From a virus: DNA of 64,000 bases. The notes beneath the pieces are model-generated. The model saw nothing but the letters and a program-made list of their open reading frames with translations. It was not told the DNA's origin and made no database searches. The position numbers were made by a program, and so were the translations under genes. Where the stretch lies: IMG/VR virus record IMGVR_UViG_3300042821_000035; one strand, 5' to 3'. Of the stretch, positions 1-37,917 are shown one piece after another; the stretch's first letter is position 1; each line of letters begins with the position of its first letter.

Positions 1-1600
1 TTGGGGTCTCTACAACGAGAGTTATTGAACATCTGTACCAACCATTACCGACACTTTGAATAGCCGGAGATAGTGCCACTCCAGAAACCGCACCAATCAC
101 ACCGTTGGTCAGATCAAAATTTACAGTACCGAGGGGACTGCTAAGGTAAAGCTGCATCCATGTCAGCGTGCTGGCCTTAACGTAGACTGAATATGTGATT
201 TGTTTTCCGGCTATGCCCTCCCCCACAGTAATCATGTATGCGGTGTGGTTCTGGTTCGCTGCGGTATCAATAATCCTTTCCGCTGTCAGTGTACCATCCG
301 GTGCGGTGGTTGCGTCAGCCGCAATCGTTGAACCGTTCAGATTCCAACTGTTCATCGTATTTGAATAGGGTAGCCAATTGGTGCGCGTGACATTGGCACT
401 GAGCGCGGCCGTGCCAGTGTAGGCCGGTGACACCAGCGCGGACCACGCCGAGAAACCGACAGGGACAACTTGGGTGAACTCGTGAGCCTCGGTGCGAAGC
501 GTGTCAGCTGCCAGATTACCTGACAGATAGCAATACAGCGCGTAGTCGCCCGCTGCTATCGCGGCAACGTCGAAACCTCCAGCGCCCGTTGCCGGATCGT
601 GCGTCGCGTTGTTATTCCAGTTGCCAGCGTTCTGCCGAAACCAAATCTTGTTGGCGGCAGTATCCCACGCCACGCTGACAACGTCGTTTTTCAGCAAGGC
701 ACCAAGACAGGCGACGGATGTATTCGGCGGGTCGATCCAGAAGTTTCCGTTGGCGGCGATGTAGGCGGCATTGGTCCTGACATCAATAACCGAAGTCTTG
801 TTCATGATCCCGATGAAGTGACTGCTCGCCGACGGGATCACGGTGACATGGAATTCGGCGTAGAGTTTAGCGGCAGCCGATTTGTTGTAGGTCTGTGTCG
901 AGCGGATGCCACCATTGCCAGCGGCACGGGTAGCGAGCTTGTCCTTGTAGAGGGATGCTCCCAGCCCCCGGCTTCGGTCAGTTTCATTCCATCCGCTGAC
1001 GGATGGCGGCAGCATGTCATCCCAAGCAAAGAAGCGATTAGGTACCGGGTAGACGAATGGCGTGTCGCCGGTGTTGATGGTGGCTATCGGACCGGCGGCA
1101 CCGACCCACTCCGCTATGACGAAGAGTTCAATGCCTGACACGCCGCTGCCGGAATAGTTCATGCCGCCAACGATCAATGACGGATCGGCCGTACCTCCGG
1201 TATTCCATGGTCCGCCATTGACGCGGACCCATAAGGCGGTAGTCGTAAAGTCGAATGCGACGCTGATGACATCGCCGGAATTGAATACGAGATGAGGCTG
1301 TGCAGCGATGTTATTGAAGTTGTCGCGGTTCTTCACCTCGCCGTTGCGCTGAAGCCAAACCGTCTTGCCCTTGTCCTTGGTGCTGATGCCGATCCGTGGA
1401 TAGGTGTCGGCAGACGTTCCGACGAGAGCGCCAATCGTGATCTCGGCGTAGCTCCTGTCGGCATAATTGCTTTGATGCGCTACGGCGTAGGACGTGGTCG
1501 AGAACGCAAAGCCATCCCCGGCAAAAGCAACGGTCTTGTCACCGTTGCTATAGCTGAGGTTGGTGACAAAGCTGTTGTCCCACGCGGCCCTGAGCGGCAT
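1..1600 (-). CDS. Head spike/fibre-like virion protein with two SPRY/ConA-like domains (3' end runs off the window)
   Basis: Translated by hand from ATG at 1600 (absent from the ORF track, consistent with no stop inside the window). SPRY-like motifs GDVISVAFDFTTTALWVRVNG and NDVVSVAWDTAANKIWFRQN, then TRTNWLPYSN...SVGNGWYRCSIT as in phage fibre domains. Confidence 0.7.
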   Translation of the reverse strand, partial: MPLRAAWDNSFVTNLSYSNGDKTVAFAGDGFAFSTTSYAVAHQSNYADRSYAEITIGALVGTSADTYPRIGISTKDKGKTVWLQRNGEVKNRDNFNNIAAQPHLVFNSGDVISVAFDFTTTALWVRVNGGPWNTGGTADPSLIVGGMNYSGSGVSGIELFVIAEWVGAAGPIATINTGDTPFVYPVPNRFFAWDDMLPPSVSGWNETDRSRGLGASLYKDKLATRAAGNGGIRSTQTYNKSAAAKLYAEFHVTVIPSASSHFIGIMNKTSVIDVRTNAAYIAANGNFWIDPPNTSVACLGALLKNDVVSVAWDTAANKIWFRQNAGNWNNNATHDPATGAGGFDVAAIAAGDYALYCYLSGNLAADTLRTEAHEFTQVVPVGFSAWSALVSPAYTGTAALSANVTRTNWLPYSNTMNSWNLNGSTIAADATTAPDGTLTAERIIDTAANQNHTAYMITVGEGIAGKQITYSVYVKASTLTWMQLYLSSPLGTVNFDLTNGVIGAVSGVALSPAIQSVGNGWYRCSITLVVETP

Positions 1601-1603
1601 GCG

Positions 1604-1981
1604 TTACGCAGGCGCCGAATAGGTCAGAGAGGTCAGCGAGACTTGCTGGCCTGCGGAGATAACCACTGAATTCAGCTGGATATCCCCGCCGCCGCCAGTC
1701 GTGGTCACGCTGCAGAGCACGATGGGCGTGGCATTGCCTTGCCGAAGCTCAGCCTTGGCAATGGTGCCGCCCACCGCGTTGGTGTCGGCAACGATGGCGT
1801 TGGCCGTCGCAGTGCCCGACGCTGCAGCACCGAATGCCGGGTTGGCGAATGTCAAAGTCGCGACGGTCGCGCTGGCGGCGGTCTGCATCACCAGCTTGCC
1901 GGGAGGCGTGTTGACATCAATCTGATCGACCACGAAATCGCACAGACCGTTTCGGACTGCGGTGGGGTGAGTAACGGCCAT
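1604..1981 (-). CDS. Small virion structural protein (beta-rich, Ala/Thr/Gly-rich)
   Basis: 125 aa ORF with AGGAG RBS, directly upstream of the fibre gene. Confidence 0.7.
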   Translation of the reverse strand: MAVTHPTAVRNGLCDFVVDQIDVNTPPGKLVMQTAASATVATLTFANPAFGAAASGTATANAIVADTNAVGGTIAKAELRQGNATPIVLCSVTTTGGGGDIQLNSVVISAGQQVSLTSLTYSAPA

Positions 1982-2020
1982 GTTGAATTCTCCTGTGACT
2001 TGGGATGTGGGTTGATGGGA

Positions 2021-2257
2021 TTAGCGCTTCTTGCGCGGCGGCTCGTCGTCTTCGTCGGGAGCGTCGGTAACCTCCGCAGTGCCCGAGACCTCGGCTTGCG
2101 GTCCGCCCTCGCGCACCTTGCCATCCTCGATCCAGCCATCGAGCAGGCCGAGCAGCTGCTCGTCCTCATCGCGCGCGGTGTAGGAAAGCCCAGCGACATA
2201 GTCGCAGTTGAATTCGTCGCTGTGGAAATCGTCGATTGCAGTGAACACTCTGGGCAT
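2021..2257 (-). CDS. Hypothetical phage protein (78 aa)
   Basis: Start moved to ATG at 2257 (MPRVFTAID), which has a GGAG RBS; the longer ORF-track start overlaps the candidate RNA locus. Confidence 0.65.
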   Translation of the reverse strand: MPRVFTAIDDFHSDEFNCDYVAGLSYTARDEDEQLLGLLDGWIEDGKVREGGPQAEVSGTAEVTDAPDEDDEPPRKKR

Positions 2258-2270
2258 GTATCTCTCCGTT

Positions 2271-2377
2271 GTTAAGACTATTGGCAAGGCGGTGCACGGC
2301 AAGTCGCGGTCAGGCCGGTTCAGGTTTGGTGGCGCTGGTCAAGGCACGGGAAGGGGTGGACTTCGGTCTGCCCCTTC
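2271..2377 (+). ncRNA. Stand-alone GGY-NN guide-like RNA (solo VIPR-type unit) with 3' hairpin
   Basis: 20-nt leader GTTAAGACTATTGGCAAGGC identical to 31554-31573; 13 in-register pentamers 2283-2347; hairpin GAAGGGGTGGAC-TTCG-GTCTGCCCCTTC at 2350-2377. Confidence 0.75.
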
Positions 2378-3311
2378 ATTCTTCCTGCTCTTGGATAGCT
2401 GCAAAACGTCGGTCCCCCCATGGAATAAAACTGCATCTGCAGTTGGGATGAGCGGGAATCAAATCGCTTGCTTGATCAATGTCGTAAGGTCCGCCCTCGG
2501 CGATGTCTAAGCAATCATCACAAACCCGGTCGTCTCCCGCAGTCAAAACGTTGACCAGCTTGATTTTGGCTTGCTCCTCCTCGATGGCGGCGAGCAACTC
2601 GGCTACCACCTCGGCCACCACCAACGCCTTGGCGGCCTTCCTCTTGCCCCCCCTACCCTTGCGCTTGGCGTCGTGAATATGCGGTAGCCACTCAGGATCA
2701 ATGCCGACCTGCTTGATGCCCGCGTGCTTGTAGGCGTGCAGCTTGCCTGCGTTGACGGCTCGAACCACACCGGTGTTGACCAGCAAGTGCAGCCTGAGCT
2801 TGGTGATCTTCTCCAGCGTCGCGCGTATCTCGCGCATCAATTCTTCCGGGCTGCGCTTGCGCAGCACCGCGTGCGAGGTGTGCCGGATCATCCGCCGCTC
2901 GGTCTCGGACGCGATCCCGATCACCTCGGCGGTCGCCATGTAGCCATGGGTCTGGCCGAGATCAGTGGAATCCAGCTGCGCCATGTCGTGCTTCAATTCG
3001 CGCTCGGCTTGGCCGATGCCATGCTCGACTGCGTCCGCCATCACCTTCCACAGCCAGTGCGGCTCGTTGGATAGCTCACGCCCCACCACCTGCCGCATCA
3101 TCATCTCGGAGCGCGACATTTTCTGGGACTTGCTCTCGATCCACGCAATGATCTCACCCGGCAGCATCGGGCCCTCGCTGCGCAGCCCGGTCACGTCATG
3201 ATCGAGCACCGCCTGCCGCAGCAAAGTGTGGACGTTGAACACCTTGCGATTGACCAGTCCTCGCCCGCGCTGGCGCAATGCGAGGCTCTTGGTGGGGTCG
3301 CGGTGGTTCAT
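2376..3311 (-). CDS. MuF / SPP1 gp7-like head morphogenesis (minor head) protein
   Basis: C-terminal DDRVCDDC...IPAHPNCRCSF motif; position downstream of the portal. Confidence 0.85.
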   Translation of the reverse strand: MNHRDPTKSLALRQRGRGLVNRKVFNVHTLLRQAVLDHDVTGLRSEGPMLPGEIIAWIESKSQKMSRSEMMMRQVVGRELSNEPHWLWKVMADAVEHGIGQAERELKHDMAQLDSTDLGQTHGYMATAEVIGIASETERRMIRHTSHAVLRKRSPEELMREIRATLEKITKLRLHLLVNTGVVRAVNAGKLHAYKHAGIKQVGIDPEWLPHIHDAKRKGRGGKRKAAKALVVAEVVAELLAAIEEEQAKIKLVNVLTAGDDRVCDDCLDIAEGGPYDIDQASDLIPAHPNCRCSFIPWGDRRFAAIQEQEE

Positions 3312-3493
3312 TTTTTCTTCTTGCTCTGGCCCTGACGTTGCAGCGCCTTGGTGCGCGCCATCTGCTTCTTGCGGCGGTCCTCGTCGAACTGGCCCGAGTA
3401 CTTCACCTTGGGGTCAAGCCAGTGCGGCTTCTCGTTGACGATCTCATCGGCGAGAATGTCCACGTGTATCGTCGGCGGCTTCTCCTTGGCCAT
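3308..3493 (-). CDS. Small basic hypothetical protein (61 aa)
   Basis: ATG at 3493 overlaps the portal stop (ATGA coupling); its stop overlaps the MuF start. Confidence 0.6.
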   Translation of the reverse strand: MAKEKPPTIHVDILADEIVNEKPHWLDPKVKYSGQFDEDRRKKQMARTKALQRQGQSKKKK

Positions 3494-6400
3494 CACGCCA
3501 CCTTCATCTTGACGGCGCTGAGCTTCGGCGCCTTCTCGATCCACGCATCCCATGCTTTCCACGCGGTGCCCGCAACCACCACTTCCTGCTCGGATTTGAC
3601 GTTGATGCCGTAGGCCGGGATCGACAGCGCTGCAGTGCGCGGCATCAGCGCACGCAACACGATGCGAGACCCATCAGATGACCAGCCATTAGCAATGTCC
3701 GGGTTGAAGGTGGTCGAGGCGGCGCCGTTGCGCACCACATTGAGGTGCGGCACCTTTTTGTAGCCACCCTCCGCAACGCTGTAGGCCTCGGCCTCTTCAT
3801 ACTGTTCCTTCGGCAATACGATGCCGCGATAAAGCTCAAGCTCCTGCAGCCCCGCCTTGTCGAGCAGCATCTGCGTCGTCTCCCACTTGGCGCGCACATA
3901 GGCCTTGATGCCCTCATAGCCGCCGACATCGCCATAGTCCTTATCGGCCTTCTTGGCGATGACATCCTTTTCCAGCCTGATCTTGCCGTCGCGCCCGGTC
4001 ACCTCGTTGAGGCGCCCGCCCAGTTCATCGGCGGTCGCCACCTGCAACAGCTGGCCCTCTTCACTGGTCGAGGATGCTTTCCACGCCGTCCACAGCTTGG
4101 CATCCAGCCTGCGCAGGTCGATCCGCTCAATGTCGATGTCGCGATCCTTGAACACCTGCTCGGCGCGATCCAGCGACAGCTGCCGCGCGATCTTCTGCGT
4201 CTTCTTGTAATCGTCGCCCGAGGTCTCGTTGAGCGGGTCGAACTTGGCAGGCATGCCGATGGTGCCGGTGGGGGTGACGCCGGTCTGCTCGTACTCTGCC
4301 ATCGCCGTGTTGTACTCGTCCATCAGGTCGCCGATGATCGAGGTGTTGAATTTGGCCCACTTGAATTTCTCGTCGTCGTCCATGCCGGAGTAAGTCTCTT
4401 CCATGTACTCCTTGGCGCTGTCGGAGAAATCAGGCGGCTCCTCGTTGCTGGCGTTGTCCTGCGCCTTGTCGTTGAACTTCTCGACCAGCATGCCGGACAA
4501 TTCCATCCGCATTTTCTCGGTCAACAGTTTGGAGTAGTCCTGCTTCTCGATGCCCTCCATCTCGATCTGGTCCGGGTCTTCGAGGCTGTCGGCCTTCAGA
4601 CTGTGCAACAGCTTGTCGTCGTACTCGACATCGACCGAGCCGCCGCCCTCGCCATCGCTGTCATACCTGATGCGGATCGCTTGGCCCAGTTCAAGCGCGT
4701 TGAATGGAAACTCGGTATCGGTCTCGCGCAGGATGTCGCCGTCGCTGTCCTTGCTGACTTCCAGATATTCCGCGATGGCCTCGTTGATGAACAGTTCAGC
4801 ATCAGAGCCGTCGGCCAGATTGCCCTTGGCCTGATCCAGCGCGCCGCCGTTCTGCTGCCAGCTTTCGGTCTCGCTGTCGATGTAGCTGCTTAGCTCGTGA
4901 TCGTAATACGCGCTCTCGATGTCGGCCTGCGTGGACTCGCTCAGCATGTCCCAGCTTTCAGGCTCCGGCGGTCCGTCGTATTCGTTCTCCTCATCGGGCT
5001 CGGCTGAACCCTCTTCCTCGGGCTGGTCCGCGCCCGAGTACTTGTTCAACAGCGCTTCCATCGCGGGCTTGGCGCTCTGGTACTGCGTCTCCAGCCGCAC
5101 CGCGAGCGCCTTATTCCATTCGTCGCCACCAACGTCGATGGCCTTCGGCTCCAGCTTCAGTTGTGGCTCGCCAGCCTTCTTGCCGCTCAGCGCAGCAATC
5201 GCGGCGGCGTTCTGTGCCTTGCGATCCGGCGCGTTGGAGCCGAACTCACCCTCCTCATTGCGCGGATGCAATTCTTCCTTGAAGGCCCCGGCGTCCATGT
5301 AGCCGTTGACGGTGGGGCCGAACGTAATCTCAAAAGGGCCGTCACTGTCACCCAGTCCCTTGGCCTTCTCGCTGGCAGCCTTCTTGCCCTTGCCGCCGGT
5401 CCACTTCTCAGCCTCCTTGATCAGGTCAATGATGCCGATGTTGATGCGCGCCACCTTCACCTGTCGGCCGTCATTGGTGAGGTTGTTGTCGGACGCGTCA
5501 TGCGCCAGCTGCCCGGCCCATGTGTGATGACCATCGAGAATGTAGTCGTCGCGCGAGATCACGATGCGCTTGTAGAATTTGCCCTCTTCCTCGATCCGCT
5601 TCATCGAGGCGGCGACCTTCTCGCCACTTAGCTCGCTCTGCGACGCGCGCAGGTTGGCGGCCTTCTCGCGGCCCTCGTCCACCTCGTAGCCCTGCTCAAC
5701 CAGATACTTGACGAAGTCCCCGGTCTTGGAGGCGCGGATCACCGGCATCTCGACGCGCGGCACCCCGATCTGATCGGCGCAGAATAAATTGGTGCCCTTG
5801 ATGGTGACGTTGCACAGATTGAACGTCGGCGCCGATGAGCCGCCCTCTGCCATCTCCAGCGCGGTCTCGCCGAGCCGCTGGATCAGGGTCGTGACCTGCT
5901 TCGGTTGCTTGAGGTCCACCCGGCGATCTTCGAACAGCGCGCGCTGTGCATCGTAGACGTTGGAGGTGTGGATAACCCCGTTGCGGTCGATGAACGCATC
6001 CGGCGAGTAGCCCTTGCCGGGATGCTTGCCCGAGGTCTGCGTGGTGGCCTGTACTACGCCCTTGCCCTTGCGCGCGGCCACCGACTTGATGCCTGACAAC
6101 GTCTTGAGCAGCGCGCTTTCATTGGCGGCCAGCGCCTTCGCCTCACGCCGGGCCGATCCCTTCAGCGCTTTCAGTGCGGCTGCGTTCTTGGCGTTGCGGT
6201 TAGGTGCGGTCGAGCCGAACTCGCCTTCCTCGTTGCGCTTGATCAGTCGCTCATTCCAGATGCGGACATCCTCGAAGGCGGCGTCCTTCAGAGATCGCCC
6301 ACCCCGCGCGCCTGCTCCAGTGCGATATTGATCTCCTGATCGGACAGCGTCCTTCCTTCGAGACGCTCCAGCGTTTTTATCAGGCTTGCCTCCTCCGCGT

Positions 6401-8562
6401 TCAGCCGCTTCTTGATCGGCTCCTCCGCTGGCGGCGTTCGTTCTGGAGCTTTCTTTGGCGGCTTCCCAATCATCGGTGTACTCGCTGGCCTTGGTGGGTG
6501 CTTCCCAGTTGGCGCGGTTGGCCGTGTTGGCGCGCGCAATGGCGTCGGCGCCGTCCTTGCCAAGGTAACCACGCCAACTCATGAACACTATATCAGGTTG
6601 CCCCATCTTGTCGAAGTCCCAACCCTCCGGCGCAAACTCCGGGTTGAACTTCATCCGCATGTCTTCTTCAAATCCGAACTGGTGATAGAAGTGGTTGAGA
6701 TGCCCAGCGTAGCAGTCCAGTGTCCTGCCGCCGTTCTCAATCGCCTGCACCATGGCATAGGCGCCCGAACCCTTGGGCCCGCCATTGTTGAACACGTTCT
6801 GCACGTCGCCTTGCGGATCGACGCTCACCCCTGCGGTGGAATCCTTGTTCATGAACAGCTTGTGGCCAGCCAACTCCTCGGCGGGATGCGCCGAGAGGAA
6901 TTGCTGCCGGGTGGACTTGTCGCGCGCGGCCACGAATTCTTCTGGCGCTGCCTTGTGGAAGTCGCTCGGCTTCTTGTTGGCGAGCGAGCTTAGCGCCTTG
7001 CGCGATAGCTCTTCCTTGGTGGGCGCCTCACCGCCACCACCCGGACCGAATTGTCCCTTGTTCTCGGGCTTGCCGCGTGAGTGGTTGGCTTCGTTCCAGA
7101 GTGCGTCGATATGATCGGCCAGCCTGCGCAGCCTCTCACTGTCAGACGACGGTCGCGAGTTGGGCGGCGCCAACTGCTTGGGTGGTCCACCGGGAGGGCC
7201 ACCGGGAGGACCATCGTCGCCACCATCCTCATCGTCCGGAGGCTCCAGCATCGGCGGCTCCACCGGCATCTCTTGGTTCTCGATGGCCTCTTGGATCGCG
7301 GCCTCCAGCCCCGGATAGGTGCCGTCCTCGACCAGCTGGTTGCACCTGCCCTTGACCAGCGCCTCGAACGGGATCAGCCCGGTGTTGGCATCAACAGCGG
7401 CAGCATCTGCCTTGGTCTTGGCAATGGTGGCCTTCTGCGCATCGTCCATCTGCCACAGCGGATTCCACGTGTAGTGGATGTCCTTGTCGTAGCTTCCCAA
7501 CGCTGAGCGCTGCAGCGCCATGTCGAGCTTCTCTAGTGCGGGACGCAGACGCAATTCCTGATCGGAGGCAATGCGGTCGTAGTAGTTTTGCAGATCGCTG
7601 TCGCCGGTCGCGTTCAATCCTGCAGGTGACATGCCGAGGAAACGCGTCGCAGGAATATCGGCCGCACCCGCTGCGATCTGCAGATACATCTGCAGCACCT
7701 CGGGCATCCCGGTGAGGTTGACACCGATGCGCTCCCATTCCTCCTCGGCATCCATCACGATGGCATTGATGACCGACTTGGCAACGTTGGCCTCGGAGAA
7801 CCGCTTGATCAGCTTGTCGGTGCCCTTGGCGGTCGAGAATATCTCAGTCAGTCCGGGTATCTTGATCACGTCGAACTTGGCTTCGGCAATCAGTGAAGCG
7901 ACGCTGCCCATGACAGTGCCCGCACTGTTCACCGCATCGTGGATCACCTGCAGCAACGGATCGCCCCAGCCGAAATTGATCATCGGGTCCGGCGCATCGA
8001 GACCAGTGAGACGCACCATGCGCGAGGGATGTATCTTCACCTCGTTGAGCAGCTGCTTGTTGGGCGTGTTGGCGCCGCCTTCACTGCGCAGGATGTAGTG
8101 CTCGGGCTGCCCGTAGTAGGGCGATGAGATATCGCGGATCATCTCCTCGACATGCAGCTGCCACGGCGCCAGCACGTGAATGAACTTGAGCCCGTCCTTC
8201 TTGATCTTCTCGGGGTCCAACTCCTTTTCCATGTTGCCGTCAACGCCGATCAGCATGCAGGCGCCGCCATAGAGCCGAGCTTTCACCATGGCCTGCTGCA
8301 GTTTCAGCTGCAGCTGCAATCTCTTCTCGGTGGCTTCGAGCTTCTCGATCTGGTCAGCCTCGGCCTGCCACGCCCGCCACTCACGCGTTGCGTCGAACGC
8401 CGGGATCGAGATCGCCTTGCGTGCGATCCAGTCCGACTTGAACGAGGATTCCAGCTGCTCGCGCGTCCACAGCACGGTGACATATCTGGACGCAGTGAGC
8501 TTGTCGCGGCCGGGCACGCCCAAGCCACTGAGGAAATTGCTGAAGGTGTCGAACAGGTACAT
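3493..8562 (-). CDS. Portal protein (DUF1073/HI1409-like) fused to GNAT-like, ParB/Srx-like and ADP-ribosyltransferase-like modules (1689 aa)
   Basis: N-terminal ~440 aa portal-like (WIARKAISIPAFDATREW, ARLYGGA, AGAADIPATRFLG); follows terL; downstream motifs GGRTLDCY...FYHQFGF, IVISRDDYILDGHH, LYRG...ASTT...SEQEVVV. Confidence 0.85.
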   Translation of the reverse strand: MYLFDTFSNFLSGLGVPGRDKLTASRYVTVLWTREQLESSFKSDWIARKAISIPAFDATREWRAWQAEADQIEKLEATEKRLQLQLKLQQAMVKARLYGGACMLIGVDGNMEKELDPEKIKKDGLKFIHVLAPWQLHVEEMIRDISSPYYGQPEHYILRSEGGANTPNKQLLNEVKIHPSRMVRLTGLDAPDPMINFGWGDPLLQVIHDAVNSAGTVMGSVASLIAEAKFDVIKIPGLTEIFSTAKGTDKLIKRFSEANVAKSVINAIVMDAEEEWERIGVNLTGMPEVLQMYLQIAAGAADIPATRFLGMSPAGLNATGDSDLQNYYDRIASDQELRLRPALEKLDMALQRSALGSYDKDIHYTWNPLWQMDDAQKATIAKTKADAAAVDANTGLIPFEALVKGRCNQLVEDGTYPGLEAAIQEAIENQEMPVEPPMLEPPDDEDGGDDGPPGGPPGGPPKQLAPPNSRPSSDSERLRRLADHIDALWNEANHSRGKPENKGQFGPGGGGEAPTKEELSRKALSSLANKKPSDFHKAAPEEFVAARDKSTRQQFLSAHPAEELAGHKLFMNKDSTAGVSVDPQGDVQNVFNNGGPKGSGAYAMVQAIENGGRTLDCYAGHLNHFYHQFGFEEDMRMKFNPEFAPEGWDFDKMGQPDIVFMSWRGYLGKDGADAIARANTANRANWEAPTKASEYTDDWEAAKESSRTNAASGGADQEAAERGGGKPDKNAGASRRKDAVRSGDQYRTGAGARGGRSLKDAAFEDVRIWNERLIKRNEEGEFGSTAPNRNAKNAAALKALKGSARREAKALAANESALLKTLSGIKSVAARKGKGVVQATTQTSGKHPGKGYSPDAFIDRNGVIHTSNVYDAQRALFEDRRVDLKQPKQVTTLIQRLGETALEMAEGGSSAPTFNLCNVTIKGTNLFCADQIGVPRVEMPVIRASKTGDFVKYLVEQGYEVDEGREKAANLRASQSELSGEKVAASMKRIEEEGKFYKRIVISRDDYILDGHHTWAGQLAHDASDNNLTNDGRQVKVARINIGIIDLIKEAEKWTGGKGKKAASEKAKGLGDSDGPFEITFGPTVNGYMDAGAFKEELHPRNEEGEFGSNAPDRKAQNAAAIAALSGKKAGEPQLKLEPKAIDVGGDEWNKALAVRLETQYQSAKPAMEALLNKYSGADQPEEEGSAEPDEENEYDGPPEPESWDMLSESTQADIESAYYDHELSSYIDSETESWQQNGGALDQAKGNLADGSDAELFINEAIAEYLEVSKDSDGDILRETDTEFPFNALELGQAIRIRYDSDGEGGGSVDVEYDDKLLHSLKADSLEDPDQIEMEGIEKQDYSKLLTEKMRMELSGMLVEKFNDKAQDNASNEEPPDFSDSAKEYMEETYSGMDDDEKFKWAKFNTSIIGDLMDEYNTAMAEYEQTGVTPTGTIGMPAKFDPLNETSGDDYKKTQKIARQLSLDRAEQVFKDRDIDIERIDLRRLDAKLWTAWKASSTSEEGQLLQVATADELGGRLNEVTGRDGKIRLEKDVIAKKADKDYGDVGGYEGIKAYVRAKWETTQMLLDKAGLQELELYRGIVLPKEQYEEAEAYSVAEGGYKKVPHLNVVRNGAASTTFNPDIANGWSSDGSRIVLRALMPRTAALSIPAYGINVKSEQEVVVAGTAWKAWDAWIEKAPKLSAVKMKVA

Positions 8563-8564
8563 GG

Positions 8565-8753
8565 CTATCGGTTCACATGATTGACGGCGGATTGCATCTG
8601 CAGCCACAACGTTTCGCGCACATACATGCGGCGGCTATCGTTGCTCATCAGGGTGTCGTGGCGACCGAGCTTGGTCAGGATGTTGCGCGGAATATGTCGA
8701 GGGGCGAGTGAATTATCATCTGGGACTACGACCACCTCGACCTTGTCAATCAT
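8565..8753 (-). CDS. Hypothetical protein (62 aa)
   Basis: ORF coupled to its neighbours in the terL-portal interval. Confidence 0.5.
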   Translation of the reverse strand: MIDKVEVVVVPDDNSLAPRHIPRNILTKLGRHDTLMSNDSRRMYVRETLWLQMQSAVNHVNR

Positions 8754-14793: not shown

Positions 14794-15684
14794 ATGAACT
14801 CGATGCAAATCACCACGCCGTTGTCACGCAAGGCCGTTCTGGTCTCGGTCAACATCTCGCAGTGGACTGCCCGCAAGCTCGACCGCAAGGTCACCGACGA
14901 AACCAACCGCAAGTATCACGCGGCCGACGACGCCGGGCGCTACAACAAGCTGCTCATCGCCTCCGAGCATCTGGCTGAACTCACCGGCATGGTGAGCAAG
15001 GCGCGCATGCTGCACTACAAGATGACGCAGCCGTGGGCCGACGATGGCCCGCGCATTCTGCCCAACGCGCTGTTCTCGAAATTCAGTGATGAGTTTCGCA
15101 CCCTGAAGCGTGAATTCAACGATGCCGCCGACCGCTTCTGTGCGGCCTACCCGGCATTCGTCGAGGAGCGCAAGAAGGCGCTGAACGGCCTGTTCAATGA
15201 CGGCGACTACCCGTCGGCCGATGACATCCGCAGCAAGTTCAATCTTGATCTGACCATCCTGCCATTCCCCGACGCTGCCGACTTCCGCAGCGAGCTGGAC
15301 GATGACACGGTGGCTGAGATCAGGGCGCAGCTGCAGGTCACCACCTCCACGGTGGTTGACAAGGCGATGGCGCACACGGTCGAACGGATCGTCTCGGTGG
15401 TTGGCCACATGGCCAACAAGCTGACGGCCTACTCGAACCGGGCGCCCGGCGAGTTAGGCGGCGTGTTCAGGGACTCGCTAGTCGAGAACGTTCGCGAACT
15501 CGCCGATCTGTTGCCCGCCTTCAATCTGGTGGGCGATGCCAAGCTCGATGAGATCGCCAAGCGGATCAAAGCCGAGCTTTGCACCGAGGACGCCAAGAGC
15601 CTGCGCGAAAACGACGGCGCCCGCGAAGCCGTGCAGAAGTCCGCAGACGAAATCGTTGCCGCAGTCTCCGGACTATTCGGCTGA
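14794..15684 (+). CDS. DUF3150-like protein
   Basis: 296 aa; LVSVNISQWTARKLD...YP...IRSKF pattern resembles DUF3150; sits between the AAA and VWA genes. Confidence 0.55.
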   Translation: MNSMQITTPLSRKAVLVSVNISQWTARKLDRKVTDETNRKYHAADDAGRYNKLLIASEHLAELTGMVSKARMLHYKMTQPWADDGPRILPNALFSKFSDEFRTLKREFNDAADRFCAAYPAFVEERKKALNGLFNDGDYPSADDIRSKFNLDLTILPFPDAADFRSELDDDTVAEIRAQLQVTTSTVVDKAMAHTVERIVSVVGHMANKLTAYSNRAPGELGGVFRDSLVENVRELADLLPAFNLVGDAKLDEIAKRIKAELCTEDAKSLRENDGAREAVQKSADEIVAAVSGLFG

Positions 15685-15749
15685 TCACTGAGTGCAGCGG
15701 GCATGTCCCGCTGCATCACAGTGACCATCAATCAACAAAGGAGCAAACC

Positions 15750-17261
15750 ATGTCAGACCTCAACACCAAAGCGATGTCACGCATCGAGAAGGCGCGCGTC
15801 CGGTTATCACTGGAGCGCAAATTCTACGGCGTGCTGGTCGCCAACGTCGAGCCGGTGATCTCGGAAAAGTTTCCGACCGCCGCCACCAACGGCAAGCAGC
15901 ACTTCTGGAATCCGAAGTTCATCTCTGAACTGACCGAGGACGAAGTGCTCGGCGTGCAGGTGCACGAATCAGAACACGATGCGCGCCATCACGGCACGCG
16001 TCGCAACGGGCGCGATCCCGAGCTTTGGAATATCGCCTGCGACTACGCGATCAACATCGACCTGATCGACGAGGGCTTCACGTTGCCGAAGGGCGCGCTG
16101 ATCGACCCGAAGTATCGCGGCATGTCAGCCGAGGATATTTATAGATCGCGCGAACTGGATTCGCGGCAGCCGCAACCCGAGCCCGAGCAGCCCGGCGACG
16201 ACACCAACCCGGATCAGAACCCGGACGAACCCGGACAGAACCCGGATGAGCCCGGACAGGGCGACGATGGAACCGCTGGCGAGGCCGCTGGTGAGGGCGA
16301 AGGCGATGAGGGGCAGGAAGATGCCCCCGGCGCCGGGAACTCACCCGGCGAGGCTGGCAACGAGGCTGGCGAGGCGTCCGGTGATGAACCGGGCACCGAA
16401 CCCGGCGACGGCACCGGCAACGGTGCTGATGGCAAGGCGCGGCGTGGCTTGGCATGCACTGGCGAGCCACGGCTCGGCGAGGCAGGCGAGGCCGACGGTG
16501 AAGGCGAGCCGGAGCAATCCGGTTCGCCCGATCCGGCAGCCTCCGGCGATCCCGGCCAGTGCGGTCAGGTGCTGGACTCGGTTGGCGATGCCAACGAGAT
16601 CGCCGAACAGGACAGCGACTGGGAGCGCAAGGTCCGGCAGGCGGTGTCGATGGCGAAGGCCGCTGGCCAGCTGCCCGGCTACGTCTCCCGCGACATCGAG
16701 CGCGCCAATTCACCGCCGCGCGATTGGCGGGATGAGCTTCGCGAATTCGCGGAGCAGGGCGCGCTCAGGGTCGAGACTTGGTCAAGACCGAACCGGCGCT
16801 TCATGGGTCGCGGCCTGATCCTGCCGTCCACCCAGAAGGACGGCGTCAACAAGGCATGCTTCCTGATCGACACCTCGGGCTCGTGCGACCAAGTCGCGCT
16901 GGCCCTCGTCAACGATGAAGCTCAGGCGCTGCTCGATGACGGCGTGGTCGATCAGGTCATCGCGATCTATGGCGACACGCGGGTTACTCGCGTGGATGAG
17001 TACAACAGCGGCGACGAAATCGAGTTCGACCCCCGAGGCGGTGGCGGCACCGACATGGCGCCGCTGTTCGACTACGTGGCAACCGAGCACGATGACGCCT
17101 CGCTGATCATCTGCTTCACCGACTTGGAATTCTACAAGTCGTGCGGTGACGAACCGCAGTGCCCGGTGCTGTTCGCCGTGCACGGCTACCCGCAGAACGT
17201 CAGGCGCCTGATGGAGACCGCCCCGTGGGGCGCACGCTGCATCGACGTTGGCGTTCACTGA
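15750..17261 (+). CDS. DUF2201-like metallopeptidase + VWA domain protein
   Basis: TAATNG, HESEH (HExxH), WNIACDYAIN; acidic G/E/P linker; MIDAS DTSGS; GGGGTD; start at 15750 after AAAGGAGCAA. Confidence 0.88.
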   Translation: MSDLNTKAMSRIEKARVRLSLERKFYGVLVANVEPVISEKFPTAATNGKQHFWNPKFISELTEDEVLGVQVHESEHDARHHGTRRNGRDPELWNIACDYAINIDLIDEGFTLPKGALIDPKYRGMSAEDIYRSRELDSRQPQPEPEQPGDDTNPDQNPDEPGQNPDEPGQGDDGTAGEAAGEGEGDEGQEDAPGAGNSPGEAGNEAGEASGDEPGTEPGDGTGNGADGKARRGLACTGEPRLGEAGEADGEGEPEQSGSPDPAASGDPGQCGQVLDSVGDANEIAEQDSDWERKVRQAVSMAKAAGQLPGYVSRDIERANSPPRDWRDELREFAEQGALRVETWSRPNRRFMGRGLILPSTQKDGVNKACFLIDTSGSCDQVALALVNDEAQALLDDGVVDQVIAIYGDTRVTRVDEYNSGDEIEFDPRGGGGTDMAPLFDYVATEHDDASLIICFTDLEFYKSCGDEPQCPVLFAVHGYPQNVRRLMETAPWGARCIDVGVH

Positions 17262-23247: not shown

Positions 23248-24831
23248 CTATCGGCTCCACTGACTGGTCCAATTCACATTCTCCTTCGCTTTGGCTTTGG
23301 CGTATGCAATCTGCCGAGACTTGATCCAGCTCAACGTATCGGGCGATGGCGGCAGCGGAATGACCTCGCCCACCGCTGGCCAAACCCCGAAGCGCTCGCG
23401 GTACTGGTTCGAGGCCCAGCCCTTCTGATAGCCCTGTCGGCGCCCGTAGAACTGTAGCTCGGCAAGGAAGATGCGTTTCTCCTCCATGCTCCAAAGAACC
23501 GGCGGCACCGGCTTCGGCTTCGGCGGCGGCTTCAGCGCGCGAAGCTCGCCAGCGTCCGGCTTGATCTTGCTGACCGCCTGCGCCACGAAGCCGCAGCCCG
23601 GACACTGCGCCATCTTCGGTGGCTTCAGGTAGGCGCACTTCGGGCATTCCTTGGGCAGCCGGATGCCCTCGGTGCGGTTCTCGTGCTCCGGTGTCTTGCC
23701 CTTGCGCAGCCCGGTGTAACTCTCATCAATGTCGGTCACGAAGCCGAGCCGCATGTGGTTGTCGCTGTGATCGAGGATCAGGCAGTCGTCCTTGCCCGGA
23801 GCATTGCGCAGGCCGCGCCCGATGATCTGGGTGAACAACATGTCGGAGCGCGTTGGCCTGCACATCACGATGCAGCGCACATCCCAGTCAATGCCGGTGG
23901 TCAGTGTGCCGACGTTGCACACCACCTGATATTCACCGTTGTGGAATTTCTCCCTGACCGCCTTGCGGCCCTCGACCAACTCGCGACCGATGATGATGCC
24001 GTCCTTGTCCTTCAGCTTGCGCCATTTGCTGGCGTCTGGCGTGTCGCCGTCCTGATAGCCGCACTTCACCCCGGCAGCGATGAACTGTTGCTGCAGTGCC
24101 TTGGCATGCAGCCGGTCAACGCCATAGCACAGCGTCGGCCGTCCCTCGCCCAGCTGCAGCCACGTCTGCACCGCGTCACCGGTCAGCCGCGAGGTGTTCA
24201 TGCGCGCGGCCAATTGCTTCTCGTTGTAGTCGCCTGCCGTCATCTTGATGCCTGACAGGTCAGGGTGCGTCGGCGCATAGACCCGGAACGGCGACAGGTG
24301 CCCGGCGTCGATCATGCCTTGCGTGGTCGAGGCCTTATGGAAGTGGTCGAACCAGTCACCGAGCCCCTTGGTCCACGGCGTCGCGGAGAGACCGATGAAC
24401 GGCACGTTGGCCCATTCCGGCTTCCAGAAATCCTTGGTGCCTACCCAGCGCTCGTAAAACTTGAACCAGATGTGGCACTCGTCGATCAGCACCACGTCGG
24501 CCTTTGGAATCTGCCGCTTCATCAGTGTTTGTACACTAGCGATCTGGACCGGCTGCACCCAATCGTAATTCGGGTTGTCGGCTTGGATCACGCCGACCTC
24601 GGTGATGCCTTGGCTGGCGAACATCGCCATGGTCTGGTCGATCAGGTCGAGCGCTGGCACCGTGAACAGCACACGCTTCTTGCGTTGCAATGCGCTGTTC
24701 ACCAGTGCGGCAGCCAGCACCGTCTTGCCGAAGCCGGTTGAGGCCTGCATGCAGATGCGACGGCGCCCCTCCTTGACCGCGTCGCGTAACGCCTCCAGCG
24801 CATCTTGCTGGTCGTCTCTCAATGTCTTCAT
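23248..24831 (-). CDS. SF2 DEAD/DEAH-box helicase (RadD/YejH-like) with C-terminal zinc finger
   Basis: STGFGKT, DECH, GLSATP, QIIGRGLR; CPKC...CPGC. Confidence 0.93.
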   Translation of the reverse strand: MKTLRDDQQDALEALRDAVKEGRRRICMQASTGFGKTVLAAALVNSALQRKKRVLFTVPALDLIDQTMAMFASQGITEVGVIQADNPNYDWVQPVQIASVQTLMKRQIPKADVVLIDECHIWFKFYERWVGTKDFWKPEWANVPFIGLSATPWTKGLGDWFDHFHKASTTQGMIDAGHLSPFRVYAPTHPDLSGIKMTAGDYNEKQLAARMNTSRLTGDAVQTWLQLGEGRPTLCYGVDRLHAKALQQQFIAAGVKCGYQDGDTPDASKWRKLKDKDGIIIGRELVEGRKAVREKFHNGEYQVVCNVGTLTTGIDWDVRCIVMCRPTRSDMLFTQIIGRGLRNAPGKDDCLILDHSDNHMRLGFVTDIDESYTGLRKGKTPEHENRTEGIRLPKECPKCAYLKPPKMAQCPGCGFVAQAVSKIKPDAGELRALKPPPKPKPVPPVLWSMEEKRIFLAELQFYGRRQGYQKGWASNQYRERFGVWPAVGEVIPLPPSPDTLSWIKSRQIAYAKAKAKENVNWTSQWSR

Positions 24832-30174: not shown

Positions 30175-30226
30175 CTGATTGTTGCCAAAATCCAAATTTC
30201 AATTTTTCAAAGGAGCAAGAGACCAA

Positions 30227-31012
30227 ATGGCAGTGAAGAAGAAGACCGAGAAGCCCGCCCCCATCACAACAAAGGGGGTGATCAACCTCGCCGAGTTGAT
30301 GTCCACCGAGGTGGCCTACCAGCATTTCCGCATCTGGCTGGTTGGCGGTACGCCGCTGATCACGCACGCATGGTCCGAGAAGGCCAAGCGGGAGATGCTG
30401 CAGAAGCAGGTCAAGGGTACCAAGGGCGGCAAGGAAGCCCGCGATCCGCATGATGACTTCGTGAACTCGCTCTATGAGATGGGCCACGTCAAAGGCAAAC
30501 CGATCTATGGTTTCCCGGTCACCGGAATCAAGAACGCGATTCTGTCTGCCGCGCACAAGGACAAGGGCGTGCCACGCACGACCGTGATGAGCGCACTCTA
30601 TCTCGACGCAAATTTGGTTCGCGTCAGGCCAGCGCTCGCTGGTGCGATTTGTGACATGCCCTTGGTGCGCATCTACTCCGGCGATCCGGAGATGCGCGAG
30701 GACATGGTTCGCGTCGGTGCTGGCCTGAACAAGAAGGCATCGCTCGCCTATCGCGGACAGTTCACGCACTGGGCGGTCAGAATCACCGGCAAGTTCAATA
30801 GCGCGGTGCTCAACGGTCAGCAGCTTGGCTTCCTCATCAACGAGTCTGGCACTGGGGTGGGCATTGGCGAATGGCGCAACGAAAAACGTGGCATGTTTGG
30901 CGCGTTCCGCATGGCCAACCTCGCCGAGGGTGAGGCTTGGGAAAAATTCGCGGCGGGTAAGGGGCCGCTGCCGAAGCGTGAGGAAGACGACATTCTGGAA
31001 GCAGCGGAGTAA
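30227..31012 (+). CDS. Cas7/RAMP-like RNA-binding protein (Vipr-like effector), 261 aa
   Basis: N-terminal strand FRIWLVGGTPLITHAW, central YGFPVTGIKNAILSAA, C-terminal Gly-rich loop GTGVGIGEWRNEKRGMFGAF; AAAGGAGCAA RBS; adjacent pentamer array; no cas1/cas2/cas3 nearby. Confidence 0.75.
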   Translation: MAVKKKTEKPAPITTKGVINLAELMSTEVAYQHFRIWLVGGTPLITHAWSEKAKREMLQKQVKGTKGGKEARDPHDDFVNSLYEMGHVKGKPIYGFPVTGIKNAILSAAHKDKGVPRTTVMSALYLDANLVRVRPALAGAICDMPLVRIYSGDPEMREDMVRVGAGLNKKASLAYRGQFTHWAVRITGKFNSAVLNGQQLGFLINESGTGVGIGEWRNEKRGMFGAFRMANLAEGEAWEKFAAGKGPLPKREEDDILEAAE

Positions 31013-31019
31013 TCACAAC

Positions 31020-31553
31020 ATGATCCGATACGTTTTTAAGGACAAACCTCTCGTCATCAAGGGAGGCGCTAAAGCCGATCCACAAAAGATCGGCGAGGCG
31101 CTGGCGAGAATCAGGGAGCAGACCAAGGGCCGGTGCAATTCAAAGACCGTGCTCGATGCTGCGCGCAACAACAAGCACTACCTGCATCGCTTCTTTGAAT
31201 GGCGCGACACCATCGCGGCGGAAAAGTATCGGCAGGAGCAGGCGCGCGAGCTTGTCGGCTGCGTTGATATTGTCGAGCGCGCTGAGAAGAAGGGCGATGC
31301 CGACAGGCGGTTGCCTGCGTTCATCAGCCTGTCAGAAAAGGGCGGTCGCAATATTCGCACGGTGCAGGAGGTGCTCGAAAGCAGCGCGCTGCAGGCGATA
31401 GCGCTGAAGCAAGCGGAAAATGATCTAGCTGCTTACGAGCGGCGGCTAGAGGTATTCGGTGATATCTGCAACGCGATCAGGCAAGCAAGAGAAATGATCG
31501 CTGCGCGGCGCGCACGGTACGAGGCTTCGGGCGGTTTTCCGGGGCACGCGTAG
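31020..31553 (+). CDS. Conserved-looking accessory protein between the RAMP gene and the array (177 aa)
   Basis: ATG 7 nt after the RAMP stop; LHRFFEWRDTIAAEKYRQEQARELV motif; its stop abuts the array leader. Confidence 0.75.
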   Translation: MIRYVFKDKPLVIKGGAKADPQKIGEALARIREQTKGRCNSKTVLDAARNNKHYLHRFFEWRDTIAAEKYRQEQARELVGCVDIVERAEKKGDADRRLPAFISLSEKGGRNIRTVQEVLESSALQAIALKQAENDLAAYERRLEVFGDICNAIRQAREMIAARRARYEASGGFPGHA

Positions 31554-32403
31554 GTTAAGACTATTGGCAAGGCAGGTCATGGCTCGTTCTGGTTTGGCGT
31601 GTCGGGGCCGTAGTCAGGCATGGCAAGGCAGGCGAGGCACGGCAAGGCCCGGCTGCGCAAGTCGGGGCATGGCGAGGCCGAGCAAGGCAAGGCAAGGCAG
31701 GCGAGGCGTGGCATTGTATGACTCGACTCGGTCAGGCAGGTCCGCGCGTGGCAAGGCAGGCATGGCTTGTCCGGTCAAGGCCCGGAGCGGCGATGGCGTT
31801 GTAAGTCGGCGCACGGCAAGGCAGGCACGGCGTGTCTGGTTCAGGCTTCGCATCGCAAAGCGCTGCAGGGCTAAGGCAAGGCAGGCGTGGCGCGGCGCGA
31901 CGTGGCTAGGTCAGTCAGGTTCAGGCGAGGCTTGGTCTGTTGCGGCGAGGCAAGGCAAGGCAAGGCAGGCGTGGCTTGGCACTCTACGGCAAGGCGGTGT
32001 CCGGCACGTCGGTGTAAGGCAGGCATGGCCGGGCTGGGTGCGGCAGAGTCGGGAGTGTCATGTCGTGTTCTGGTCAGGCAAGGCAATGCGCGTCTGGTCT
32101 CTGCAAGGCAGGCACGGCGGGGCGCGGCTGATCTGGGTTAGGTTGGTCGCGTTACTGCAAGCCATGGCAAGGCAGGCTTGGCAAGGCTGGTCTCGGAGTG
32201 GCGATGTCAGTTCAGGCATTGCTAGTCGGGAGGCTGGCGAGGCAAGGCAGGCAAGGCGTGGCGACGCAATGCGCGGCTAGTCCGTGCCGGGCGGTTGCGA
32301 GGCTTAGTCTGGAGTGCCAAGGCAAGGCAGGCAAGGTCCGTCCAGTCCGATCTAGTCGAGGCGTTTTTCGGCGAGGCGGGGTGGTGCTGGTCAAGGCAGG
32401 CTA
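31554..32403 (+). repeat. GGY-NN pentamer array (candidate multi-guide vrRNA), 12 units delimited by AAGGCAGGC
   Basis: 5-nt periodicity; AAGGCAGGC at 31625, 31694, 31753, 31818, 31878, 31962, 32016, 32105, 32169, 32244, 32324, 32393. Confidence 0.93.
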
Positions 32404-32406
32404 ATC

Positions 32407-32432
32407 GGGGGTGAGCGCTGTTGCTCACCCCC
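32407..32432 (+). terminator. Hairpin GGGGGTGAGC-GCTGTT-GCTCACCCCC closing the array
   Basis: Perfect 10-bp stem right after the last AAGGCAGGC. Confidence 0.7.
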
Positions 32433-36518: not shown

Positions 36519-36611
36519 TTGACTTCCCTGACCACGATAGAGCCGAGGAGCCTGCGCATACCAACGCAGTGGCGTGTGCTGTCTGAGTGGCTGCCGCAAG
36601 GGAGTAGCAGC

Positions 36612-37001
36612 ATGACACCTGCAAAGCTCGTGCTCGCCTTCACCGCGATGACCTCGCTCCTGATGGTGTTCGCGATTCAGCGGCTGCCGGGAGATGAGCG
36701 CATCGAGGTGCCGAAGGTGGCGGACGAAGTGCAGACCTCGGTCGTCAAGAAGACAGACATGGTCAGGCAAATTGATATGGTTGCGCCGCCGGTGGCGGCG
36801 ATGTCCAAGCCGGTAGTGACAGAGCGCATCGTGCCCGAGGCGCCTGTTGCAACGCCGCCGGTCGCTGCTACCGAGGAGGGGGAGCAGCGACCGGCCAAGA
36901 AAAGCAAGCAGGTCTACGCCAGCGCCGAGAGCAACGTCTGCACGCGGCACAACATGCGGAAGGTGATGGTTGGAAAGTATCGGTGGAGGTGCAGACGATG
37001 A
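36612..37001 (+). CDS. Putative exported protein
   Basis: GGGAG RBS, N-terminal hydrophobic helix, C-terminal CTRH...WRC. Confidence 0.6.
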   Translation: MTPAKLVLAFTAMTSLLMVFAIQRLPGDERIEVPKVADEVQTSVVKKTDMVRQIDMVAPPVAAMSKPVVTERIVPEAPVATPPVAATEEGEQRPAKKSKQVYASAESNVCTRHNMRKVMVGKYRWRCRR

Positions 37002-37017
37002 TTCTGGAGCAGGACAA

Positions 37018-37917
37018 ATGACCACGCGAATTGTCCGCCAGAAGAACGACCGCATCGCGACGTTGGAGGCCAGTTTGTATCTGAAGGAAAAGTATATCGG
37101 GCACGCCAAGGCCCGCATCGAGGCGCTGGAGGCGGCGCTGCGGGAGCCGAACGGCTTCGCAAACCTTCGCGCTATTATGGCTGATCAACCGTACCGCAAC
37201 AGTGGTCTGAGCGTTCACGAAATTGAAGTCATCTTGGCGAACAAGGGTGGCTTTATGCCTGATGAAGCGACGGTGTGGTTTCGTGAGGCGCGCGGAAAGT
37301 TAGGCATCGCACCAGAGCAAGACAAATGAACGAAGCAGAACTGGGTTTTGAATTGAAAAATGCCTTAGCCCGCATCGAGGCGCTGGAGGCGGCGCTGCGG
37401 GAAGCACGCCAGTATGTTTCTGATGCTGGTGGAGATGAAGATTGTGAAGTCCAACAAAACTCCACCGCTCTGCTTATTGTTATTGATGCCGCCCTCGCAC
37501 CGGAGACAGACGCGGGCATTGGCTGTGGCAAGTCTGTCATAGAGCCGTGGGGCACACCGGAGCAGAACAAATGAAACGCTGGCCCATCATCCGGCACGTC
37601 AGGTATTTCATCGGCATGTACCGGGTCAACCGGCATTACGACAGGTGGAGGTCGGTGGGCTACCTGCCGGTGTACGCCCAGCACGACTATGACGTGCTCG
37701 ACCGGATATGGCGAGGTGAAGCATGAGCGACAATGATCACCTGACCGAACCAATGCTGAGTGCTTCAATGGATGAAGTGATCAGGTTACGCACCCGCATC
37801 GAGGCGCTGGAGGCGGCGCTGCACAAGATTGATGACATAACAATCGACCACACTGCGATGGGGATCGCCCGCAAAGCCCTCGCCAGCGCCGCCCTCGCAC
37901 CGGAGCAGGACAAATGA
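37018..37917 (+). repeat. Cluster of small ORFs (37018-37329, 37326-37574, 37571-37726, 37723-37917) sharing 30-35 bp direct repeats
   Basis: GCCCGCATCGAGGCGCTGGAGGCGGCGCTGCGGGA at 37111 and 37368, a 30-bp copy at 37793; GAGCA(G/A)(G/A)ACAAATGA junction motif four times. Confidence 0.85.

Follow-up and report, generated by a model that had tools for sequence, protein, structure and literature searches.

A probable distal guide RNA gene of a phage VIPR system, matching the MuF gene of sister phages

The window analysed here is a stretch of 64,000 nt within G000, an 85,350-bp phage genome. Its positions 2271-2387 probably represent a distal vrRNA gene with a single guide, belonging to the VIPR system of the phage itself and aimed at the MuF gene of sister phages, a reading to which we assign a probability of roughly three in four. 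VIPR systems combine a RAMP protein (Vipr), an accessory gene (vap) and vrRNAs made of GGY/NN pentamers (bioRxiv 10.64898/2026.04.26.720920). The NN dinucleotides pair with double-stranded DNA in the pattern NNx NNx, on either strand, and the skipped base is usually a codon wobble position (10.64898/2026.04.26.720920). The binding of one GGY per Vipr protomer, with the NN presented, is established for type II VIPR (10.64898/2026.04.26.720927), and the 1-nt skip and silencing have been shown experimentally for type II only (SUSP1 and P. fulva). An earlier reading of the same DNA, made from the sequence only, had proposed that the element is a single guide of a RAMP/pentamer-array system acting in trans; the target found in sister MuF genes by sequence comparison strongly supports this proposal.

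The predicted target in sister MuF genes

Targets were scored by the published 1-nt skip rule (NNx NNx) with the 80% cut-off of the paper, and the sister loci L046, L047, L048, L001 and L002 were fetched by protein similarity, independently of the guide pattern. All 22 informative bases of guide units 1-11 match in L046 and L048, whose MuF proteins are 57-62% identical to that of this phage, as well as in L063 and L065-L067, and 21 of the 22 match in L047, L001 and L002. The gapped target search (AAxGGxACx...) proposed in the sequence-only reading thus returns the MuF motif at 22/22, against a maximum of 17/22 on the same DNA for 2000 shuffled guides (1000 unit-shuffled and 1000 base-shuffled). 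With skips of 0, 2 or 3 nt instead of 1, the score is 15/22; this difference recovers the 1-nt skip rule independently and supports its generality.

The matched DNA encodes the MuF motif HPNCRCAFVPF. The reverse complement of the guide, when divided into codons, gives TTx CAx CCx AAx TGx CGx TGx GCx TTx GTx CCx, which is the MuF core, and the skipped bases coincide with codon position 3 of the MuF ORF in L049 and its relatives. Among relatives, the wobble bases vary and the NN positions are invariant. One exact 10-unit pattern is present in a single IMG/VR contig, L049. The match there can be extended to 11 units, is located at the 3' end of a portal-MuF fusion ORF and encodes LHPNCRCALVP. A second pattern, made of units 2-11, gave 21 exact hits in IMG/VR, every one of them at this motif in a MuF-like ORF, from phages whose MuF proteins are 27-55% identical. 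Since the target is the invariant HPNCRC core, one guide could be effective against many sister phages, over a range of 27-62% protein identity. Moreover, samples 3300044492 and 3300043601, from which L065, L066 and L067 originate, yielded contigs of this phage as well. These matches strongly support a specific target of the guide, the coding motif HPNCRCAFVPF in the MuF genes of sister phages. The guide corresponds to the sister motif but not fully to the copy in its own genome, and thus has the appearance of a weapon directed against close relatives.

Anatomy and possible expression of the guide unit

The unit starts with GTTAAGACTATTGGCAAGGC, of which the window contains two exact copies, both on the + strand, one at 2271-2290 and the other at the beginning of the main array (31554-31573), as had been noted before; an exact 20-mer match is not expected by chance (0 expected, from 100 shuffles), and no convincing third copy was identified within the window. 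The A/U-rich leader head GTTAAGACTATT (2271-2282, + strand), part of this 20-nt leader common to unit and array, is unpaired in the predicted fold, and the 20-mer overlaps guide unit 1. The sequences upstream of the 20-mer are unrelated between guide unit and array, and the leaders of related arrays are not conserved. No exact copy of the 20-mer was found in IMG/VR or JGI metagenome contigs, a search from which the records of this genome itself may be excluded. The shared 20-mer may be a promoter -10 region, an RNase entry or processing site, a 5' boundary or a duplication scar.

From position 2283 there follow 13 in-register 5-nt units: GGCAA, GGCGG, TGCAC, GGCAA, GTCGC, GGTCA, GGCCG, GTTCA, GGTTT, GGTGG, CGCTG, GTCAA and GGCAC. 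Units 1-11 (GGY-NN x 11; 2283-2337, + strand) are the part that matches sister-phage MuF DNA, with AA, GG, AC, AA, GC, CA, CG, CA, TT, GG and TG as their NN; these and the AA and AC of units 12 and 13 are exactly the 13 dinucleotides listed in the earlier reading. The same NN string at 5-nt spacing occurs in no other IMG/VR contig. A strict GGY is found in 8 of the 13 units and G[G/T]Y in 11, the variants being the same as those of the array, and the six most frequent trinucleotides of the array are those of the unit (GGC, GGT, GTC, TGC, GTT and CGC). A scan of the entire genome (85,350 bp) reveals in-register pentamers above background at three + strand places only, namely the guide unit (8/13 for strict NNGGY and 11/13 for the loose form), the array at 31554-32403 and a third run at 16409-16498; the genome-wide maximum on the - strand is 5/13 strict and 6/13 loose.

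Units 12-13 (GTCAA and GGCAC; 2338-2347, + strand) have NN that mismatch the family targets. They resemble the array landmark GGCAAGGCA and, according to the alignment, are together with units 10-11 homologous to the last units of the array, whose counterpart of orphan units 10-13 reads GGTGG, YGCTG, GTCAA and GGCA. Next comes a 12-bp hairpin with a C(UUCG)G loop, followed by a T-rich tail (2350-2387, with the hairpin at 2350-2377, + strand), which we interpret as a terminator and/or a vrRNA 3' cap. The preference of this hairpin for the + strand, already proposed from its two G-U pairs, is borne out by the predicted energies (-21.9 kcal/mol on the + strand and -15.1 kcal/mol on the - strand, where these pairs become A-C). 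It is terminator-like on the + strand only, with the tail ATTCTTCCTG, and no U-tract is present on the - strand.

The claim that the leader is common to the array holds, but it was incomplete, as the 3' end is common too: positions ~2326-2362 of the orphan unit and ~32377-32417 of the array are homologous, and what these two copies share is the last ~20 nt and the start of the terminal stem. Because both ends are common to the array, the unit can be described as an array head and an array tail that enclose seven or eight units specific to it, and the internal guide units are not copies of any array unit. The landmark-like ends of the orphan keep the 5-nt register (GGCAAGGC-GG at the start and GTCAAGGCA-C-GGG at the end), and there is one guide. 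Scans of the window against Rfam (gathering threshold) and for tRNAs gave no match.

Independent transcription of the guide unit from the + strand is suggested by its geometry, since the neighbouring genes are all on the - strand and the unit has its own + strand terminator. A sigma-70 promoter scan identified none near either leader copy. In a soil metatranscriptome, one unstranded 151-nt contig covers 2275-2425 and extends 48 nt past the hairpin; two metatranscriptome runs gave three read-length contigs in all across 1600-3300. As it overruns the hairpin, the 151-nt contig is more likely to derive from - strand operon mRNA or DNA carry-over than from a terminated vrRNA. A weak TTGCAG-17-TATCTC arrangement, discernible by eye and ending 7 nt before 2271, fails the criteria of the scan, has no counterpart at the array and is not claimed as a promoter.

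The MuF junction and self versus non-self

The guide unit lies antisense inside the head operon, 29 kb from the array. The upstream gene of the junction (2376-3311, - strand) codes for a MuF-like head morphogenesis protein of 311 aa, with matches to Pfam Phage_Mu_F and to PHROG head-morphogenesis families, and is followed on its 3' side by a 78-aa gene (2021-2257, - strand) whose orthologue abuts the MuF stop in relatives. As the earlier reading had it, the element fills the gap after the MuF stop, which measures 118 nt from this stop (2376) to the ATG of the next gene (2257); the JGI gene calls on identical contigs show the same gap. The 78-aa gene is 70% identical to L047:1585-1794, and the L047 copy starts 1 nt past the MuF stop. 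In both L047 and L048 the orthologue begins at or right after the MuF stop and the insert is absent, and in L001 and L002 the gap after MuF is just a few nucleotides. No pentamer run was detected at the MuF loci of L046, L047, L048, L001 and L002. At the MuF/small-gene junction of L046, whose MuF is 57% identical, an unrelated 220-aa gene is present (L046:4030-4692) and no guide, and this different insert suggests that the junction between MuF and the 78-aa gene behaves as an insertion hot spot. Judged by these comparisons, the guide unit is a lineage-specific insertion. The same strand also carries a 1704-aa ORF (3493-8607, -) with Phage_portal_3 in its first ~400 residues and a very long C-terminal extension; the portal ORFs of relatives are likewise long (1689-1732 aa).

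The phage belongs to a large family of ~80-89-kb genomes present in metagenomes only, with MuF proteins 43-62% identical, and near-identical copies of it occur in soil and freshwater-sediment metagenomes from ~15 studies. Three copies of the phage that were assembled independently carry the unit without any difference, and this invariance in the aligned copies leaves no variation from which to read selection. The sequence-only reading had named the persistence of the element in relatives lacking the RAMP gene as evidence that would count against it. Two such relatives, G005 (95% complete) and G006 (92%), possess the target sites and carry neither vipr nor the element nor any GGY/NN run, G000 and G004 being the positive controls of the vipr search. 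This outcome favors the earlier reading. A blastn search with the MuF region gave no match among cultured phages, and the GTDB species genomes yielded remote archaeal MuF fragments only, with no prophage relative and no host identified among them.

The phage's own MuF gene contains a near-target, the codons for AHPNCRCSFIPW (2419-2456, - strand), which is homologous to the guide's target with 5 mismatches and starts 42 nt beyond the hairpin of the unit. It scores 17/22 (77%) over units 1-11 and 17/26 over all 13. The five mismatches are distributed over four units and correspond to R encoded as AGA, A to S, V to I and F to W. The own motif AHPNCRCSFIPW is unique among 104 family members with a readable motif, where A-F-[VI]-P-x dominates. 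No site of at least 80% exists in the phage's own 85-kb genome, and the other sites are at the level of shuffled guides, except for the unit itself (with 3-nt spacing). The own MuF would therefore be spared by its five mismatches, although self-sparing is not certain, as 77% is close to the 80% cut-off of the papers.

More tentatively, the guide and the neighbouring MuF allele could form a linked cassette of a weapon plus an immune allele, acting by RNA-guided marker exclusion. This possibility, which we regard as somewhat doubtful, is raised by the fact that, in a genome of 85 kb, less than 100 nt separate the guide from the homologue of its own target, by the uniqueness of the own motif among the 104 homologues and by the insertion-hot-spot character of the junction. 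Homing endonuclease genes similarly ride beside their own cleavage-resistant target. If such a cassette exists, in a mixed infection the guide would shut every sister MuF/head operon with the consensus motif, and co-inheritance of the resistant SFIPW/AGA allele, at a distance of 42 nt, would allow the pair to spread through the family by recombination.

The VIPR locus, possible mechanism and known systems

The RAMP protein that the earlier reading took as the partner of the guide is encoded by vipr (30179-31012, + strand) and indeed belongs with the Vipr family: a profile of this protein and 11 IMG/VR homologues matches PDB 36pp, 'SUSP1 Vipr protein', with an E-value of 4.5e-6. The alignment to 36pp includes the thumb arginine (YR) and the G-loop G.G[D/E]WR (G.GEWR), two features that hold the GGY bases (bioRxiv 10.64898/2026.04.26.720927). 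No match to the protein was found in Pfam or NCBIfam. In a Foldseek search with a model of Vipr, the top 50 PDB matches are all Cas7-type RAMPs and weak; as the model is poor (pLDDT 58), we treat these fold matches as supportive. From the profile match, the protein qualifies as a Vipr family member remote from SUSP1 Vipr, and the Vipr proteins of relatives are 57-71% identical. The conserved accessory gene vap (31020-31553, + strand) is beside vipr in 12/12 related loci. Its model (pLDDT 86) consists of a winged-helix-like domain and a ~48-residue C-terminal helix, with no nuclease fold and no significant neighbour in the PDB, where the matches are at most weak ones of winged-helix type.

The main vrRNA array (31554-32432, + strand) starts with the same 20-mer as the orphan unit and ends with a terminal hairpin (32407-32432). 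It harbors ~12 landmarks in which GGCAAGGCA runs into GGC (GGCAA-GGCA, then GGC), giving a 4-nt step, that is, the 1-nt overlaps of 'staggered' arrays, a class that has already been described (10.64898/2026.04.26.720920). Its guide a1 (31566-31610, + strand) matches 18/18, wobble-aligned, on G004:C1:6920-6945 (L056), which encodes the helicase motif CRPTKSDILF of the related VIPR+ phage G004 from IMG/VR; a1 scores 16/18 in G005 and 12/18 on the phage's own helicase gene (23248-24831). Going by these scores, a1 follows the same self-avoidance logic as the orphan guide. The other ~11 array guides (31611-32403, + strand) have no site of at least 16/18 in five sister genomes or fragments, and their targets are possibly host prophages or other elements. 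Conversely, guides from the arrays of 12 related VIPR loci gave no match of at least 16/18 on this genome.

We propose that a vrRNA of ~100 nt would be transcribed from the + strand, against the head-gene operon, and would end at its own UUCG hairpin. Vipr protomers encoded at 30179-31012 would each bind one GGY and present the NN dinucleotides, and the resulting filament would pair with double-stranded DNA, reading it as NNx NNx with a 1-nt skip. As computed from the alignments, the guide would spell codon positions 1-2 of H-P-N-C-R-C-A-F-V-P-F, the most conserved MuF motif, so that a sister MuF would be recognised whatever its wobble bases. By analogy with published VIPR silencing, binding near the 3' end of MuF may block transcription of a rival's head operon, either in co-infection or against a resident relative, and the phage's own MuF, with five mismatches (77%), would be spared.

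The guide might instead, or in addition, be loaded by the Vipr of a rival phage and turn the machinery of this competitor on its own MuF. Solo vrRNAs that redirect foreign Vipr are documented (10.64898/2026.10.15.759431), related VIPR+ phages such as G004 share habitats, and the target is the family-consensus MuF motif, all of which would fit. We nevertheless consider this unlikely, as two near-complete relatives bearing the target possess no Vipr to hijack, and self-loading is the simpler reading for a phage with its own vipr-vap and an array with which the unit has both ends in common. The same shared ends, which copy those of the array, might also mark the unit as an inert by-product, an unexpressed, collapsed duplicate of the array (head plus tail) that ended up in an insertion hot spot; the different insert at the L046 junction, the negative promoter scan and the invariance of the unit in three aligned copies are consistent with this. 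A random remnant would not be expected to give 22/22 of the MuF motif in the wobble register, the internal units copy no array unit, and the hairpin has retained its + strand G-U pairs and T-rich tail, making such an origin very unlikely.

Autoregulation, in which the guide would bind the 3' end of the phage's own MuF and time or damp its own late head operon, has in its favor that the guide adjoins a near-cognate site (17/22, at 42 nt) and is convergent with the operon. It appears highly improbable, since the own site has five mismatches over four units where relatives match perfectly, and relatives run the same operon without the element. Moreover, published VIPR systems have no self-targets of at least 80%, and perturbation of NN pairing abolished silencing (10.64898/2026.04.26.720920; 10.64898/2026.04.26.720927). 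Finally, the unit could be read as a - strand feature (an operon attenuator or an mRNA-stabilising hairpin), as the hairpin still forms on that strand (-15.1 kcal/mol), or as part of a 100-aa + strand ORF (2208-2510), as an open frame spans it. Both are scarcely credible: the - strand lacks a U-tract, its stem is weakened by two A-C mismatches and the 5-nt periodicity is specific to the + strand, while no PHROG family matches the ORF and open frames occur frequently in DNA of 60% GC.

The preferred reading, a distal guide of the phage's own VIPR system, agrees with several features of known systems, namely a RAMP-type Vipr with an adjacent vap, 9-16 GGY/NN pentamers (here 13) followed by what may be a structured 3' tail, wobble-aligned targets with a 1-nt skip in genes of competing phages, no self-target of at least 80% and a main array that fits the staggered class. 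However, in the characterised type II VIPR systems (E. coli phage SUSP1 and a P. fulva prophage) all vrRNAs flank vipr, whereas this one is 29 kb off; its 3' end, as predicted, is a simple UUCG hairpin instead of the pseudoknot tail of characterised VIPR vrRNAs, and the Vipr is only remotely similar to that of SUSP1 (profile E-value 4.5e-6). A natural comparison is also offered by virus-borne mini-CRISPR arrays and by the marker exclusion of T-even homing endonucleases, which have specificity against a conserved gene of relatives and leave the own allele immune, the weapon being linked to the immune allele in homing systems. Unlike these, the present element has no CRISPR repeat-spacer structure and no Cas nuclease, its recognition is noncontiguous (NNx), and there is no sign of DNA cutting.

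Solo or orphan vrRNAs are known from F5 satellites and VIPR-null SUSP1-like phages (bioRxiv 10.64898/2026.10.15.759431), and the unit resembles them as a single vrRNA gene away from a vipr operon, aimed at conserved codons of a rival with the skips on wobble positions. These elements have no vipr and borrow the protein of a rival, whereas the present 85-kb genome encodes vipr, vap and an array, and we thus call the unit a distal vrRNA, as it falls outside the solo vrRNAs of Lopez et al. 2026. The published elements are directed at vipr itself, other vrRNAs, satellite genes or host REP decoys, in contrast to the structural-module gene MuF, and, unlike them, the present guide is next to a presumably resistant MuF allele of its own genome.

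VIPR, staggered arrays and orphan vrRNAs are therefore already published. What is new is the distance of 29 kb between a guide and the locus of a VIPR+ phage, the construction of the unit as a minimal head-and-tail copy of the array and, on the strength of the alignments, a structural-gene target (the MuF core motif) and the proximity of the guide to a presumably resistant allele in the same genome. The kind of target differs from published ones (satellite recombinases, lysogeny switches and vipr itself), and the finding takes VIPR biology past the type II systems of enterobacteria and Pseudomonas, into a widespread family of ~85-kb soil phages that have a staggered array. The guide also provides a natural self/non-self pair (22/22 versus 17/22 over the same 11 codons) that could be used to measure the mismatch tolerance of VIPR. 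If VIPR+ phages can scatter guides outside the locus, surveys limited to the surroundings of vipr undercount guides.

The third GGY/NN run (16431-16485, + strand) lies in frame in an acidic low-complexity insert of a DUF2201/VWA-like gene (15579-17261). It comprises the units GGCAA, GGCGC, GGCGT, GGCTT, GGCAT, GCACT, GGCGA, GCCAC, GGCTC and GGCGA, then GGCA and GGC, with array-like landmarks at both ends, and might represent a vrRNA embedded in an ORF, a decoy or a remnant of recombination. Its best target score in the local set is 15/20, which is at the null level, and no exact pattern was found in IMG/VR.

The text of 10.64898/2026.04.26.720920 names no actinophage or soil clade. Homologues of Vipr with 32-36% identity, annotated as hypothetical, are present in Gordonia and Mycobacterium phages (NC_031249.1, 32708-33310; NC_023580.1, ~36584-37512), and in the mycobacteriophages pentamer-repeat DNA lies just upstream of the homologue, suggesting that cultured actinophages carry VIPR loci of this clade.
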